UHGV virus genome: UHGV-0196552
DNA length: 13,292 nt
Strand: one strand, 5' to 3'
Origin: a virus
Position 1 is the first letter of the stretch. Each line of letters begins with the position of its first letter. The notes beneath the pieces were generated by a model that searched no databases, had not been told where the DNA came from, and was given only the letters and a program-made list of their open reading frames with translations. Both the position numbers and the translations under genes were made by a program. Of this stretch, positions 2,705 to 13,292 are shown piece by piece.

Positions 2705-3433
2705 ATGAACAGAAAGCAATTCATCCAGTCACACGGAGCTACTTGCAGTAACTGGACGTGGAGTTGGTCATTTGTTAACCATGAAAAGAAGATGGTCATC
2801 TTTGGGTCATGGGATGTTGAGAGTGAACAAGAGCGGTCTGTAATACTCCGGGAGAAATGGGAATACAACTCAAACAACAAAAAACAACCGGGATACACCC
2901 AGGCACTGGAACACATCCGTTTAGCCCATGAAGGCTACGAACTTTACACCTTCAATATGGTTTTCGCAGAACACCCTGAGAATCCTGAAATTGCAGTAAT
3001 CAAGGATTTTGAGCGTAAATTAAACAAGCGATATCTTCGTAAAGAAGGTGTTGTTTGGTATGCAGACTTCTTACCTAATCCATTCCCTGATGAAATTCCT
3101 TCAGGAGAGAGTTTTGTTGAAGGTGCAAAGACTCAAGTAACAGTGAACTACTACGAACGCGATCCAAAGGCCAGACAAGCCTGCATCCAGCATCACGGTA
3201 CTGCCTGTAAATGCTGTGGCTTCGATTTTGAGAAGGTCTATGGTACACATGGCCGTGGGTTCATTCATGTACATCACATCAAGCCGCTTCATACGATTGG
3301 GGAAAACTATGTGGTCAATCCCGTAACAGATATGATCCCATTATGTCCAAACTGCCATGCAATGGTACATCACGGAAGCGAAGTACTTCCAATTGCAGAT
3401 TTGAAAAAGAAAATGACATTCTGGAGCGAGTAA
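2705..3433 (+). CDS. McrA-like HNH nuclease: about 170-aa N-terminal domain of unknown function plus C-terminal HNH (beta-beta-alpha-Me) motif
   Basis: Strong RBS AGGAG 5 nt before ATG 2705. C-terminus contains CKCCGF...GFIHVHHIKPL...LCPNCHAMVHH, the classic Cys-pair, HH, Cys-x2-Cys-His HNH signature as in McrA-type enzymes. N-terminal domain is Trp-rich (WTWSWSF, GSWD). Confidence 0.75.
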   Translation: MNRKQFIQSHGATCSNWTWSWSFVNHEKKMVIFGSWDVESEQERSVILREKWEYNSNNKKQPGYTQALEHIRLAHEGYELYTFNMVFAEHPENPEIAVIKDFERKLNKRYLRKEGVVWYADFLPNPFPDEIPSGESFVEGAKTQVTVNYYERDPKARQACIQHHGTACKCCGFDFEKVYGTHGRGFIHVHHIKPLHTIGENYVVNPVTDMIPLCPNCHAMVHHGSEVLPIADLKKKMTFWSE

Positions 3434-4225
3434 ATGGATTTATCACAATTGAGCAACGTCGAATTGATGCAACTGAATCAGTTGACGCTTGATGAGTTAG
3501 AACGACGAGAGGTTATCAGAACCAGAAACAATCCTATCAGTGAGTACACTGAATGGCTGGTTGCGGATAAGATGCAAATGGTACTGGCTGCACCTAGTAC
3601 TAAAGGGTATGACGCTACAACAACTGACGATCGAAAAATTCAGATTAAGTCTCGTAAGAATAATTTAAAAAACCAATCATTAATTCTTGGGATTATCAGA
3701 AATTATGATCTGAACCAATTCGATGAACTCATTGCCGTAATATATAACCATGATTTCTCAATTCGTTATGCCATATCCATACCACATGAATTAGTGAAGG
3801 AATATGGTTTTTATAATGAGCATCAAAATGGTTACACTTTAAGAATAAGCAATTTATTACTTAACGATCCACGTGTAACAGATATCATTGAATTTATTGA
3901 CCCAGACACTGAACGTTCAAAGGAAGAGATCACGGTGAAGCCAGATTCAAACACTATCCGGGATGTACAGACAATAGGAATGCAGACATTTGTTGAGTAC
4001 TATCAGTATGTTGAAAGTGGTATGAACACAACTGATCTTGTTGAAAAGATGGTAACTGACCATCCAGAATGGAAGGAAAGTACTGCAAGAACTAAGGCAT
4101 CTTCAATGCGAAGAGTATTCAAGAATGGCGACAACATTGAAGTACTAAAAATCATCTATAAGTCGAATCACCCAGCAATAACGCATGAGATTAAGAGTAA
4201 ACTGATGACGCGTTGGGATAAATGA
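3434..4225 (+). CDS. hypothetical protein translationally coupled to the HNH nuclease; N-terminal region has a possible Mrr-like PD-(D/E)xK signature
   Basis: ATG 3434 directly follows the TAA of the upstream gene (3431-3433), with GGAG 8 nt upstream. SEYTEW...KGYD...DDRKIQIKS fits E...D...(Q/E)xK spacing of restriction-endonuclease-fold proteins such as Mrr. This is a weak, motif-only assignment. Confidence 0.5.
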   Translation: MDLSQLSNVELMQLNQLTLDELERREVIRTRNNPISEYTEWLVADKMQMVLAAPSTKGYDATTTDDRKIQIKSRKNNLKNQSLILGIIRNYDLNQFDELIAVIYNHDFSIRYAISIPHELVKEYGFYNEHQNGYTLRISNLLLNDPRVTDIIEFIDPDTERSKEEITVKPDSNTIRDVQTIGMQTFVEYYQYVESGMNTTDLVEKMVTDHPEWKESTARTKASSMRRVFKNGDNIEVLKIIYKSNHPAITHEIKSKLMTRWDK

Positions 4226-4815: not shown

Positions 4816-5325
4816 ATGAAACTCGAACATTGGGCAATTCCGATCACTTCATTGGACGGTATGTTACTCGGCGTAGAGCTGGAAACCCGTGTACTGATAA
4901 ACGGTTGCCAGGTACTGATGGGGGCAGGAAAAGAAAGTGAATATATCCGTCACGTGGTCTATCAGAACCAGTTAAGAATGATTCAGGGTAAAGCCGCATG
5001 GTTCAAAGAAAAGGGGCTGTTGTGCGTGCTCAGTACTGGCACAGGTACACGCTATGAAGATCTACCATTCATACGGTACATGGCTGCTGAACCACTGCTA
5101 ACGGACGGTTACGACTTAGTTCGACTAAATAGACGGTTCACTGAAGAACACATAGAGCGGCTGATCTTCCCGGTACTCATCAATAACATCATGCAGTACT
5201 GCGACAAGGTGATCGTACAAGTCAGCAGCAATCGAAATCACAGGATTTTACGAGAGTCGGGGGTATGGGCAGTACAGGGAGAGTACAGGCCAATCCGCTT
5301 TGAACAATGCGAACAACTTCTATAG
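4816..5325 (+). CDS. compact, degenerate EAL-like domain protein (probably catalytically inactive c-di-GMP phosphodiesterase homologue)
   Basis: Four EAL-like motifs in the right order: PITSLDGMLLGVELETR (compare YQPIVDL.TG.IVGAEALLRW), LSTGTGTRY (compare DDFGTGYSS, with DD lost), DLVRLNRRF (compare LKIDRSF), VQVSSN...VQGEYRP (compare EGVE...QGY.FSRP, with EGVE lost). Only 169 aa, shorter than a canonical EAL domain. Confidence 0.45.
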   Translation: MKLEHWAIPITSLDGMLLGVELETRVLINGCQVLMGAGKESEYIRHVVYQNQLRMIQGKAAWFKEKGLLCVLSTGTGTRYEDLPFIRYMAAEPLLTDGYDLVRLNRRFTEEHIERLIFPVLINNIMQYCDKVIVQVSSNRNHRILRESGVWAVQGEYRPIRFEQCEQLL

Positions 5326-5335
5326 GGATATAACA

Positions 5336-5608
5336 ATGAAAATACTAATCGTCATGTTGGTAGTACTGCTCACAGGCTGCGGCAGCGTACATCACTCATT
5401 CATGGATAAAGCCTTTGTCGGCAACGTTGATAACAAGGCTACAATAGTACTGTTCGACGCTGGCACACGAAACGGGGTGAAGTACTACCGGCCTCAGTTC
5501 CAGAGTGATTGTGGCCGCACCTACAATCCGATTTACCAGGTGGACAATGGCAGTACTACATGCCATATACGAGAGGAAAGAATTAAAAAAATGCATCAAT
5601 ATAGATAA
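5336..5608 (+). CDS. small lipoprotein (signal peptide with lipobox LTGC); candidate moron or superinfection-exclusion lipoprotein
   Basis: The track ORF 5300-5608 begins with a TTG shown as M. The internal ATG at 5336 has an AGGGA RBS about 7 nt upstream and begins MKILIVMLVVLLTGC, a textbook lipoprotein signal. Mature part has several Cys. Confidence 0.6.
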   Translation: MKILIVMLVVLLTGCGSVHHSFMDKAFVGNVDNKATIVLFDAGTRNGVKYYRPQFQSDCGRTYNPIYQVDNGSTTCHIREERIKKMHQYR

Positions 5609-5728: not shown

Positions 5729-6883
5729 TCAACGTAGCATGGCTAATGTTCTGGAAATTCTTATTATATCCTTCTCAATATCATCTAAAACAGGAGTTGA
5801 GTTTCTGCTTCGCTCTGCAATTTCTTGCAAAATATATCTATTTAAATGGTTGTTAACATTTTTAGGGTCAAGGTTTTCTGGTGTGGGAACAACACAGCAC
5901 TGCCAATAAAAAATCTCATCTTCAAAATGATTTAGCCATTTAGAATGATATTTTTCTTTCGATTTTTTCTTGTTAAGTACATAAATGCTAGCCGCAGCTA
6001 CCACATCCGCAATTTGTATACCATGCGTGACTTTAGAATCAGAAAGAATCATTGGCTCAGATAGCTTAAATGTGATCGGGATTTTTTTATCATGAAAAGT
6101 CTCGAACACAATCTCATCATTGCCTATCATCTCATTGAATGAGTCCTGATGAGTAATTAATGGTTTTGAGCTGTCGCATATAGCTCTCAATGTACCAAAC
6201 TTACTACTCATATCGCACAGGAGATTATAAAGAGAAGTCGTTGTCAAATCTAATAACCACTTATCAATCCCAGTACCCTCAAGGCCTTCATATTCTTCTT
6301 CAATTATAGAGATGTTATTCTTGGCGAAATCATGAATGTCCATCATAATTTCAGAATTTTTAGAACCAACAACTGGTTCGATAAAACTATTAACCAATAT
6401 TTTACCTCGTGAAAAATCTTCAAATCGCGAATGTAATAGTTCTGAATATTCATCCTTAGCTATTAAAGAAAAATACATTATATTTGAGATGAATAGGTGA
6501 AATTTAAGGTTGTAAAAAATTGAGCTTTTAGCTGCTAATACTGGCTCAAAAATATATTCGAAGAATTTTCCTGAGAGGGCATATTTTTTTTCGTTTACAA
6601 CCACACGCATACGACCACGGAAATGATTAAGTATTTCATCTACGGCTGGTTGAAATCTCTTGCTATTTACGAGAGTGCTACCTTTTAGCTCTTCGGCTGC
6701 GATCGAGTACTTGTTTATTATATAATCAACAAACTGTTTACTTTCCTCATCATCAGTCACGACTGCTGCGTAACTAAAAAAAGGCTGATCTTTTGAAAGT
6801 AAGTTATTACCAGTGAATCCTGATTCATCGAAATATACATTCTTTACCAATTTGGTCATTCCTTTATGAGCTACAATGTGCAT
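5729..6883 (-). CDS. DUF3800-family protein
   Basis: N-terminal VYFDESGFTG and C-terminal HGIQIADVVAAA match the DES and Q-x-x-D motifs I recall for DUF3800. 384 aa, very AT-rich. The start could be the ATG at 6883 or an internal ATG 8 codons downstream; neither has a clean RBS. Confidence 0.65.
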   Translation of the reverse strand: MHIVAHKGMTKLVKNVYFDESGFTGNNLLSKDQPFFSYAAVVTDDEESKQFVDYIINKYSIAAEELKGSTLVNSKRFQPAVDEILNHFRGRMRVVVNEKKYALSGKFFEYIFEPVLAAKSSIFYNLKFHLFISNIMYFSLIAKDEYSELLHSRFEDFSRGKILVNSFIEPVVGSKNSEIMMDIHDFAKNNISIIEEEYEGLEGTGIDKWLLDLTTTSLYNLLCDMSSKFGTLRAICDSSKPLITHQDSFNEMIGNDEIVFETFHDKKIPITFKLSEPMILSDSKVTHGIQIADVVAAASIYVLNKKKSKEKYHSKWLNHFEDEIFYWQCCVVPTPENLDPKNVNNHLNRYILQEIAERSRNSTPVLDDIEKDIIRISRTLAMLR

Positions 6884-6978
6884 GTGCTATTAATATAACA
6901 TTGTAATAATGCTAATGTAAAATAGAATGTAAGTATTTTTAAGCAAGCTAATTAAGTTAAATTACTAATTAAGGTACT

Positions 6979-7060
6979 CCGGCAGCCCAGCTTAGAACGC
7001 GAGTTTTCGGCACCGGATTCTTTAAGTTATGTGTGAAGTTTAGATAGCTTCCCGCACCGC
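6979..7060. other. GC-rich island in an otherwise AT-rich intergenic region; possible cos-like packaging site
   Basis: CGCGAGTTTTCGG (6998-7010) followed by CCGGATTCTTTAAG resembles, from memory, lambda left-end sequence CGCGGGTTTTCGC ... CCGGTTTAAGG. Three related GC-rich repeats: CCGGCAGCCC (6979), CGGCACCGG (7008), CCGCACCGC (7052). Confidence 0.2.
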
Positions 7061-7062
7061 AC

Positions 7063-7626
7063 TTAGCAAAGTACAACACCTATTTCATTTAACGCACAAT
7101 CGCAATGACGGTTTGTCGGACATTCGCATAATTTGAATACTGCATAAGATCCTTTAAGGGTATCGGTTACATACTTGTCCATTTCTTCAACTACAGATGA
7201 TGAGCAATATAAATGAAAACCAACACAGAAAGAATTTCGCATCGGATACTTACATTCTTGTATAGAGTTGAGTTTCAAATGGTCTGCTTGCAATCCTCTT
7301 TTTAAGGCAGATGAACGCTTAGTACATTTCAGCTCAATAAAGATATAGTCTTCAAAAAGGGTATCTTTTTCTCTCATTATTATATCGATTTTTGAGAGCT
7401 TGCTTGCAGGGAAATTATTAGGGTCAAGAAAAGCTGTAACTTCACGTTTAACTTCATATTTTCTTTTTTTGTTAAGGAAGTGCTCAAATTCAATTTGTAG
7501 CCATTTTTCCCAATCATTAGTTTCATTACTGACGAAGGAATACAGACGCCTCTTTATATCTTCATTCTTTAGGAAGCTATTCAGTAACTTTACCAGCAAA
7601 GAAAAATCATTGTTGCGGTCTGACAT
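7063..7626 (-). CDS. PD-(D/E)xK-like nuclease with C-terminal Cys cluster
   Basis: WLQIEFEHF (acidic motif I), KIDIIM (Asp) and IFIELKC (E-x-K) match restriction-endonuclease-fold spacing. C-terminal CECPTNRHCDC (C-x-C-x5-C-x-C) could bind a metal or Fe-S cluster, reminiscent of Cas4/RecB-family nucleases. ATG at 7626, 38 bp from the divergent terS start. Confidence 0.55.
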   Translation of the reverse strand: MSDRNNDFSLLVKLLNSFLKNEDIKRRLYSFVSNETNDWEKWLQIEFEHFLNKKRKYEVKREVTAFLDPNNFPASKLSKIDIIMREKDTLFEDYIFIELKCTKRSSALKRGLQADHLKLNSIQECKYPMRNSFCVGFHLYCSSSVVEEMDKYVTDTLKGSYAVFKLCECPTNRHCDCALNEIGVVLC

Positions 7627-7640
7627 AGTGATCTCAATAA

Positions 7641-10008
<2,368 letters not shown>

Positions 10009-10011
10009 TAA

Positions 10012-13292
<3,281 letters not shown>

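Follow-up and report, generated by a model that had tools for sequence, protein, structure and literature searches.

A conserved element upstream of the terminase genes as a probable cos site in an uncharacterised family of temperate Enterobacteriaceae phages

Introduction

The locus described here raises the question of what a short GC-rich island does in an otherwise AT-rich non-coding gap upstream of the terminase genes of a phage. The window, i.e., the whole stretch of 13,292 nucleotides analysed (from the UHGV virus genome UHGV-0196552), belongs to an AT-rich prophage with a GC content of 38%. A first-pass annotation, made from the sequence alone, had proposed that the island, situated between two minus-strand genes, might be a cos-like packaging site. 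The genes around the gap and the main features within it are listed below.

5729-6883, minus strand: accessory DUF3800 gene that closes the variable cargo region left of the element (Pfam DUF3800, 3e-9; phrog_12991, 8e-119)
6892-6921, minus strand: promoter-like site for the DUF3800 gene (TTTACA-18-TATATT preceded by a TG), located in the AT-rich half and outside the conserved element
6972-7062, plus strand: family-conserved non-coding element, putative cos with nicking and TerS-recognition regions (nhmmer profile, 74/74 loci)
7063-7626, minus strand: p187 (187 aa), optional gene in the slot separating the element from terS, coding for a putative PD-(D/E)xK nuclease
7665-8213, plus strand: terS, Nu1-type small terminase with an N-terminal winged helix-turn-helix (phrog_57, 5e-22; BLASTP to lambda Nu1)
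8119-10008, plus strand: terL, gpA-family large terminase with ATPase and nuclease (Pfam GpA_ATPase, 5e-49; GpA_nuclease, 2e-42)
10021-10551, rightward: head-tail joining gene
10551-12059, rightward: portal gene, lambda family

By its sequence, the terminase is a lambda-type Nu1/gpA homologue. TerS aligned with lambda Nu1 collinearly from residue 1 over 159 residues (BLASTP, 8e-6) and TerL with lambda gpA over 621 residues (1e-13, 21% identity), the terminase proteins being 21-23% identical to those of lambda. The Pfam Phage_Nu1 match of TerS reached 20 bits, which is under the cut-off of 30, and RefSeq labels the terS product as 'terminase small subunit'.

A conserved GC-rich element upstream of terS

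The gap between the DUF3800 gene and p187 is 179 bp long (6884-7062). The GC profile confirmed the island that had been described there: the GC content is 19.5% in the left 87 bp (6884-6970) vs 51% in the right 92 bp (6971-7062), and the richest 40-nt GC stretch of the 13.3-kb window (0.65) starts at 6977. The strings that had been quoted from the island were all found in place, namely CGCGAGTTTTCGG at 6998-7010, CCGGATTCTTTAAG at 7013-7026, CCGGCAGCCC at 6979, CGGCACCGG at 7008, and CCGCACCGC at 7052.

Analysis of the gap by blastn showed that its positions 88-162 recur in relatives devoid of DUF3800, of p187 or of both genes, where they lie upstream of terS at a distance of approximately 100 bp. 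With an nhmmer profile of the element, each of the 74 loci covering the start of terS gave a single match, always upstream of terS and on the same strand as it; seven further loci gave no match, and these stop short of the terS upstream region. The profile had no further matches in 1.01 Mb of related prophage and viral loci, and the 74-locus comparison revealed no other conserved non-coding elements near the terminase genes. Because the island is conserved in single copy in all 74 relatives, it is not a product of chance. Conservation of the AT-rich half is limited to L015 and L054, both of which carry DUF3800.

The two minus-strand genes bordering the gap had initially been regarded as one cassette that cos would split. 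This did not hold, as DUF3800, which is carried by some relatives only, and p187 occur independently of one another among the relatives. They are therefore best described as two unrelated accessory modules flanking a site that belongs to the phage backbone.

Anatomy of the element

The anatomy of the element was derived from an alignment of 45 distinct versions. From left to right, the following parts were recognised in the window.

6972-6980, plus strand: left box AGGTACTCC, family consensus AGGTWCYCC
6981-6997, plus strand: hypervariable spacer GGCAGCCCAGCTTAGAA, candidate cohesive-end region, of fixed length and essentially free sequence
6998-7011, plus strand: right box CGCGAGTTTTCGGC, family consensus (C)GCG[A/TA]G(A)TTT(T)CG[GAC]C
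7021-7036, plus strand: TATGTGA box TTTAAGTTATGTGTGA, family consensus T.A..T.TATGTGA
7051-7059, plus strand: distal box (box 3) CCCGCACCG, candidate TerS-binding, cosB-like site adjoining the p187 stop codon at 7063

The AGGT of the left box is at least 90% conserved and forms an abrupt left limit, with no conservation further left. From the left box to the GCG the distance is 16-20 nt, and it is 18 nt in 27 of 44 distinct versions, although the sequence in between is essentially free: the window and L015 agree at 53% of the spacer positions, as opposed to approximately 80-95% in the two flanks. The spacer is a candidate for the cohesive-end region by analogy with lambda, a role that we infer because the homologous box of lambda starts at base 13, directly after the 12-nt overhang.

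Three related GC-rich repeats had been suggested as terminase-binding elements. The strings exist, and the second and third of them correspond to conserved boxes, but they do not form a repeat family, as boxes 2 and 3 have just GCACCG in common. The first, CCGGCAGCCC, had to be dropped as a binding element, since it sits in the unconserved hypervariable spacer. The distal box CCCGCACCG occurs once in the window, and no inverted second copy of it (rR2-like) was present in terS or elsewhere in the window.

Being GC-rich in an AT-rich setting and located at the 3' end of p187, the element could in principle act as a structured nucleic acid, such as a terminator (of p187 or of the upstream cargo genes), a cruciform, or a small RNA, and L031 does contain a weak minus-strand hairpin (GCGT...ACGC). 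We consider this explanation very improbable. The site had no Rfam or tRNA match, both strands of the gap folded like shuffled sequences (z-scores of +0.36 and -0.90), no terminator was predicted in the window, and inverted repeats between the TATGTGA box and box 3 were not enriched, with a frequency of 3.69 vs 3.57 in shuffles. Furthermore, the element is kept without p187 in 38 loci. Inspection by eye for dyad co-variation between the left and right boxes gave inconsistent results.

Comparison with lambda and other gpA-type phages

The cos of lambda is approximately 200 bp long, and TerS binds to its cosB part while TerL nicks cosN (PMC4669245). Around cos, the lambda sequence (NC_001416) runs from ...GACAGGTTACG through GGGCGGCGACCT into CGCGGGTTTTCGCTATTTATGAAAATTTTCCGGTTTAAGG, with AGGTTACG as the flank of the left nick and CGCGGGTTTTCGC as bases 13-25. 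The likeness to the lambda left end that had been noted for the first string of the island was borne out, as 11 of the 13 positions of CGCGAGTTTTCGG are the same in lambda bases 13-25. For a match of this quality 0.10 occurrences are expected in the window (19/200 shuffles), and in lambda two such matches were found vs 1.39 expected, one of them being the cosN-adjacent site. Taken alone, the 13-mer match is thus suggestive only. The second string fared worse: the similarity of CCGGATTCTTTAAG (CCGG...TTTAAG) to lambda CCGGTTTAAGG is at chance level, because the offset is different and the CCGG is not kept in the relatives.

The left ends of lambda, N15 and phi80 all have CGCRGRTTYTCGC directly after the 12-nt overhang, followed by TATWTATGAAAA. 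Allowing at most 2 edits, CGCRGRTTYTCGC was found inside the element in 37 loci, where approximately 0.4 matches are expected, vs 123 matches in the other approximately 2 Mb, which amounts to an approximately 80-fold enrichment in the family elements; TATWTATGAAAA at no more than 1 edit was found inside the element in 18 loci vs 92 matches outside, both locus counts being inflated by kinship among the loci. The likeness to TATWTATGAAAA is good in relatives of the L029 type and weaker in the window itself. Both consensus boxes stand in the lambda order and orientation, approximately 14 nt further apart in the family than in lambda.

There are further parallels in the layout. Like the element, the lambda cos lies on the same side of terS and in the same orientation, it is served by homologous terminase subunits, and it has an AGGT-containing box across the spacer, the distance from the AGGT box to the CGCG box being 26 nt in the element vs 20 nt in lambda. 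As in lambda, the putative recognition part of the element lies beyond the putative nicking part, on the distal side. For the left box (RGGTNCY) there are two equally similar sequences in lambda, namely GGGTCCT at 48473-48479, which we take to be the 7-bp cosQ, and the AGGTTAC left of cosN. Its spacing is not that of lambda, however, and such a short motif does not lend itself to statistics.

On the other hand, the element is approximately 90 bp long overall and, unlike in lambda, p187 can intervene between it and terS. Lambda-like phages in the strict sense have 12-base cohesive ends similar to those of lambda (PMC4669245). The lambda cohesive end GGGCGGCGACCT has no counterpart in the element, where the corresponding segment is hypervariable: allowing up to 3 mismatches, no similar sequence was found near the element, and the only two matches, at 12254-12266, are at chance level. 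No IHF consensus with at most 1 mismatch was found in 6737-8048, and the complex cosB, with its array of R3, the I1 IHF site, R2 and R1, is not present at the element. Judged by these motifs, the element does not belong to the strict lambda-like cos group. When alignment with lambdoid cos sites was carried out, as had been recommended, the right box gave its 11/13 local match, but the whole-element profile did not recover the cos junction of circularised lambda. Global homology to the lambda cos was rejected on these grounds. At the level of sequence, the resemblance between the element and lambda is confined to short boxes, and the cosN conservation of the right flank (I2 side) is present in the element but local only.

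The phage N15 has a 'simple cosB' with a single critical R3 site (PMC4669245). A simple cosB of this kind is conceivable for the element as well, whose one distal box, CCCGCACCG, appears from the comparisons to carry the TerS specificity. In addition, CGCAGATTCTCGC plus TATATATGAAAA of N15 and phi80 resemble the family variants GCGTAGATTTCG ... ATATATGTGAAAA. The cohesive-end sequence of N15 is not common to the element, and the inverted, rR2-like counterpart of box 3 was not found in the window. Records of other gpA-type phages begin just upstream of terS, among them HFM1 with a PhageTerm-annotated 11-nt 5' cohesive end; the right box was absent from the left ends of Arya and HFM1, both gpA-type phages, and from the start of the DCP80 record.

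The gene slot between the element and terS

Homologues of p187 (26-100% identity) occupy the same slot, in the same orientation, in 36 of the 74 loci and were not detected in 38. The distance from the end of the element to terS varies accordingly, being 20-112 nt in 36 loci without a detected p187 homologue and 603-710 nt in the 36 loci where one is inserted. In the window, the end of the element lies approximately 600 bp from the ATG of terS, with p187 in between. L047 has a frameshifted p187 in the slot (626 nt from the element to terS), and L057 carries there a gene for a 311-aa HKD/PLD-like protein in the same orientation (1008 nt). Optional nuclease-like genes are the only genes ever seen between the element and terS.

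Among 18 homologues of p187, a D and E.K are invariant, i.e., residues of the E/D/ExK type. All Pfam matches were sub-threshold (RE_XamI, 0.036; UPF0102, 0.12), the search against PDB sequences gave no match, the NCBIfam and PADLOC searches were likewise uninformative, and the single-sequence AlphaFold model was of too low confidence to be used (pLDDT 38).

The position of the element upstream of a terS-led structural operon makes it necessary to consider a late promoter or regulatory region, e.g., one that depends on a phage-encoded activator, an alternative sigma factor, or a Q-type promoter-proximal antitermination site, and that would be conserved through a regulator common to the whole family. 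In the 38 loci without p187 the element is directly upstream of terS, ending approximately 20 nt before the ATG in the L029 type, and two boxes with a fixed spacer of approximately 18 nt are also promoter-like. Moreover, a strong hairpin followed by a T-run separates the element from the terS ATG in L013, L015, L053 and L054, an arrangement compatible with a promoter-terminator-antiterminator design. However, promoter prediction gave no rightward sigma-70-like site inside the element, neither in the window nor in the diverged relatives L031, L013 and L036, and the GC-rich boxes match the cosN flank of lambda and no promoter consensus. In 36 loci the element is intact 600-700 bp away from terS behind a convergent gene, where a promoter would be expected to decay or shift, and transcription from it would need antisense reading through p187. 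The co-variation with the TerS helix described below would not be expected either. As the element is kept whether it lies near terS (20-112 nt) or far from it (603-710 nt), a distance-tolerant cis-acting DNA site fits better than a promoter or leader. We therefore regard a regulatory role as improbable; some weight is left to it because transcription of terS must start in the element or cross it in the phages without p187.

Mosaicism and cargo at the edges of the element

Pairwise comparisons of the loci revealed mosaic junctions at three places: at the left limit of the left box, where the spacer meets the right box, and in the interval separating boxes 2 and 3. On the left side of the element, the adjoining 1.5 kb fell into 32 unrelated clusters among 67 loci, while 1.5 kb inside terL fell into 4 clusters among 71 loci. 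In the window, the cargo region has restriction-like genes (padloc mREase_II, 1e-62; mREase_IV, 5e-8). Cargo hotspots adjacent to cos have been documented in P2 and P4 (PMC9122126), and in the present family hypervariable cargo likewise begins exactly at one edge of the putative cos. P2 is of another phage lineage, with a terminase of the P/M family and not of the gpA/Nu1 family, and the extra single-gene slot toward terS is a feature of the present family.

Could the element then be a mere anchor of a hotspot for cargo exchange, with no role in packaging and with the real cos or pac elsewhere? The abrupt end of conservation at the AGGT with a hypervariable left flank, the mosaic junctions at three positions of the element, and the nuclease genes inserted precisely at its right edge would all agree with this. 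Nevertheless, no recombinase is tied to the element; the sole one, a serine integrase, is approximately 8 kb off, and its attP is split in the prophage. Hotspots next to cos are also a known consequence of cos itself (PMC9122126). An anchor leaves the lambda-type box, the orientation relative to terS, and the co-variation with TerS unexplained, and the vicinity of the terminase genes offers no rival conserved non-coding element, the spacer between p187 and terS being merely 38 bp. Hence, we find it quite unlikely that the element is an anchor alone.

The element was also considered as the attP of the serine integrase, and this was rejected, as it is intact and internal in the prophages integrated between yeaG and mipA. 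Its distance to the recombinase is approximately 13-14 kb in the IS-expanded E. coli copy (measured to the recombinase end) and approximately 8 kb in intact copies (measured to the gene).

Co-variation of the distal box with the TerS helix

The sequence of box 3 falls into classes that pair with classes of the TerS recognition region. The box class CCCG[CA]A[CA]C pairs with the TerS helix class ESTVR.W, the class ACA[CT]AA(A)ACA with RRYG[YF]DVSVISR.W, and the class CCCACGACAGG with PSVVSRDW (MYGYDPSVVSRDW). The VSVISR.W class spans two lineages, with TerL identities to the window of 62-75% and 86-95%, respectively, in which the sequences between the boxes are otherwise unrelated. Between the window and L013 there is no difference from the left box up to and including CGGCACCG, but box 3 and the TerS helix-turn-helix differ. 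This parallels the mosaic pattern of lambda and phage 21, which have cosQ and cosN in common and a private cosB and Nu1 helix specificity (PMC4669245); in the present family the pattern is a correlation across linked sequences. The co-variation is supportive of TerS recognition of box 3 and not decisive, because physical linkage and shared ancestry confound it.

Prophage context and relatives

One E. coli genome carries the prophage between yeaG and mipA, and a serine recombinase is encoded at one of the prophage ends. A literature search on a prophage at the yeaG/mipA site found no report. The exact p187 protein was found across many Escherichia/Shigella-like assemblies, several of them IS-riddled, and relatives of the prophage were present in Buttiauxella, Pluralibacter, Scandinavium, Pseudescherichia and Enterobacter, with 63 IMG/VR contigs as further relatives. 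Searches with the region and with the island by megablast and blastn against 50,697 phage records found no relative, and the closest TerL of an isolated phage in these records is 35% identical. The family is a temperate, uncharacterised phage family of Enterobacteriaceae without a cultured representative. As a side observation, IS elements riddle many of the copies found in Escherichia/Shigella-like genomes, so this particular prophage may be inactive, a point that was counted against the cos reading.

Among the viral, genome and metagenome contigs examined, no contig began or ended inside the element and all matches were internal. One apparent break, between L027 and L112, was traced to a 97-nt contig overlap, i.e., a branch of the assembly graph and not a DNA end.

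Proposed function of the element

Taken together, we conclude that 6972-7062 of the window is probably the cos site of an uncharacterised family of temperate enterobacterial phages. This is the best-supported reading in view of the Nu1/gpA-type terminase, the fixed single-copy site, the layout of the boxes, the lambda-type box, the co-variation with TerS, and the adjacent hotspot, with the lambda-family portal and the GC-richest 40-mer of the window as further points in its favour. The original suggestion of a cos-like site is thus supported in its central idea, as a probable reading from the comparative analysis, and not in several of its details.

If the element is cos, packaging may proceed as follows. 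The Nu1-type TerS would bind to the distal part via its N-terminal helix-turn-helix, with the main contact at CCCGCACCG (7051-7059), possibly assisted by the TATGTGA and CGGCACCG boxes. Bound TerS would position the gpA-type TerL on the boxes AGGTACTCC and CGCGAGTTTTCGGC, where TerL would nick the two strands at staggered positions, either inside the approximately 17-nt spacer (6981-6997) or at its borders, and thereby leave 5' cohesive ends. One of the nicks is expected, as in lambda, just left of the CGCG at 6998; the overhang would measure somewhere between 12 and 18 nt. Packaging would then proceed rightwards, from p187 through terS to terL, up to the next cos. The left box may be cosQ-like or serve as a left half-site in termination. 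As a consequence, the virion DNA would have p187 first at its left end and DUF3800 last at its right end.

A more far-reaching combination of these observations is that the terminase uses the flanking boxes only and that a dedicated landing slot for free-standing nuclease genes lies just inside the left end, between the putative TerS-binding box and terS. We regard this joint reading as rather doubtful at present. Nicks placed at measured distances in a free spacer would create hypervariable cohesive-end 'barcodes' of approximately 12-18 nt among close relatives. Such barcodes would limit the annealing of ends between co-infecting relatives and put recombination junctions exactly at cos, and the putative nucleases of the slot (PD-(D/E)xK in 36 loci, HKD/PLD in one) could serve phage exclusion or homing.

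The location of cos sites upstream of Nu1/gpA terminase genes is textbook biology, so the general significance of the finding is modest. If the element is confirmed as cos, the TerS helix and DNA box pairs would be a natural series for studying packaging specificity beyond lambda, 21 and N15. Such a result would demonstrate the persistence of a short cosN-flanking box across terminases with no more than 21-23% identity. Confirmation would also define the packaging site and the chromosome ends for a widespread, uncultured, AT-rich phage family of Enterobacteriaceae, provide a precise landmark for prophage annotation, and account for the accessory and restriction-like genes that pile up there.

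Variable Genes Left of the Putative cos Element

The element under study is a conserved non-coding putative cos upstream of terS (window 6972-7062), and its left edge is formed by an AGGT box. The 1.5 kb to its left was compared among related prophage and viral loci, and the sequences of 67 loci fell into 32 unrelated clusters, in contrast to only 4 for a terL segment. This stretch is a hypervariable cargo hotspot, and its start coincides exactly with the AGGT box. The following genes of the window lie in the cargo region to the left of the element:

2705-3433, rightward: HNH protein gene (PADLOC mREase_IV, 5e-8; Pfam HNH)
3434-4225, rightward: DUF6998 protein gene (PADLOC mREase_II, 1e-62)
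5300-5608: small ORF, N-terminus of the lipoprotein type (MKILIVMLVVLLTGC)
5729-6883, minus strand: DUF3800 gene

The adjoining HNH and DUF6998 genes look like a methyl-directed restriction pair. The small ORF is kept in many relatives with 27-100% identity, and this conservation suggests that its product may be a moron-type surface or exclusion protein.

Two metagenome contigs (L027 1-97 and L112 1-97, the latter as its reverse complement) were found to overlap by exactly 97 nt across the element. Rather than a DNA end, the overlap looks like a branch of the assembly graph at a sequence common to different phage variants.

The terS-terL Region and Copies with IS Insertions

The longest terL ORF of the window encodes 629 aa, and its first 95 nt overlap the end of terS (window 8119-8213), while the gene callers used for other assemblies chose a later start, giving products of 540 or 546 aa. 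The prophage copy of E. coli AREA_C483 (L074, NZ_CP123310 2146330-2188039) is decayed. In it, terL is interrupted by IS3 and IS5 elements and the cargo region carries an IS3 remnant with a group II intron inside; IS insertions in terL or in the portal gene were seen in several Shigella-like copies as well.

Directly before the terS start codon, four loci (L013 5465-5494, and likewise L015, L053, and L054) have a hairpin of 13 bp and, next to it, a T-run; together they look like an intrinsic terminator directly ahead of the first late gene. The 38-bp spacer between the p187 gene and terS in the window (7627-7664) is built from short A-rich units, AAAAAT and GGATAAAAA. Comparison of this spacer between the window and L001, L004, L006, L007, L012, and L069 revealed that the copy number of the units differs among otherwise near-identical prophages.

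Genes Between the Element and terS

Two different genes were seen, in different loci, in the slot that separates the element from terS:

window 7063-7626, minus strand: p187, an optional gene for a 187-aa product
L057 4524-5459, minus strand: gene for a 311-aa product with an HKD/PLD-type motif (HHKFCIIDD)

Homologues of p187 were found in 36 loci, invariably on the minus strand and exactly between terS and box 3, the distal box of the element and a candidate TerS-binding site (window 7051-7059). Among loci L013-L060 the gene is not inherited together with the DUF3800 gene: L015 and L054 carry DUF3800 but no p187, many loci have only p187 of the two, and both genes are missing from L013 and L053.

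Against Pfam, p187 gave only matches below the threshold, to RE_XamI and UPF0102, and an AlphaFold model built from the single sequence could not be used (pLDDT 38). The protein and its homologues share the invariant residues NDWEKW.Q, RE, D, E.K, D..K, R, and GF and a mostly conserved C-terminal CxC-x6-CxC, a pattern that fits a putative PD-(D/E)xK nuclease whose small tail would bind metal. As L057 carries the HKD/PLD-type gene instead of p187, it seems that nuclease-like genes gather in this slot.
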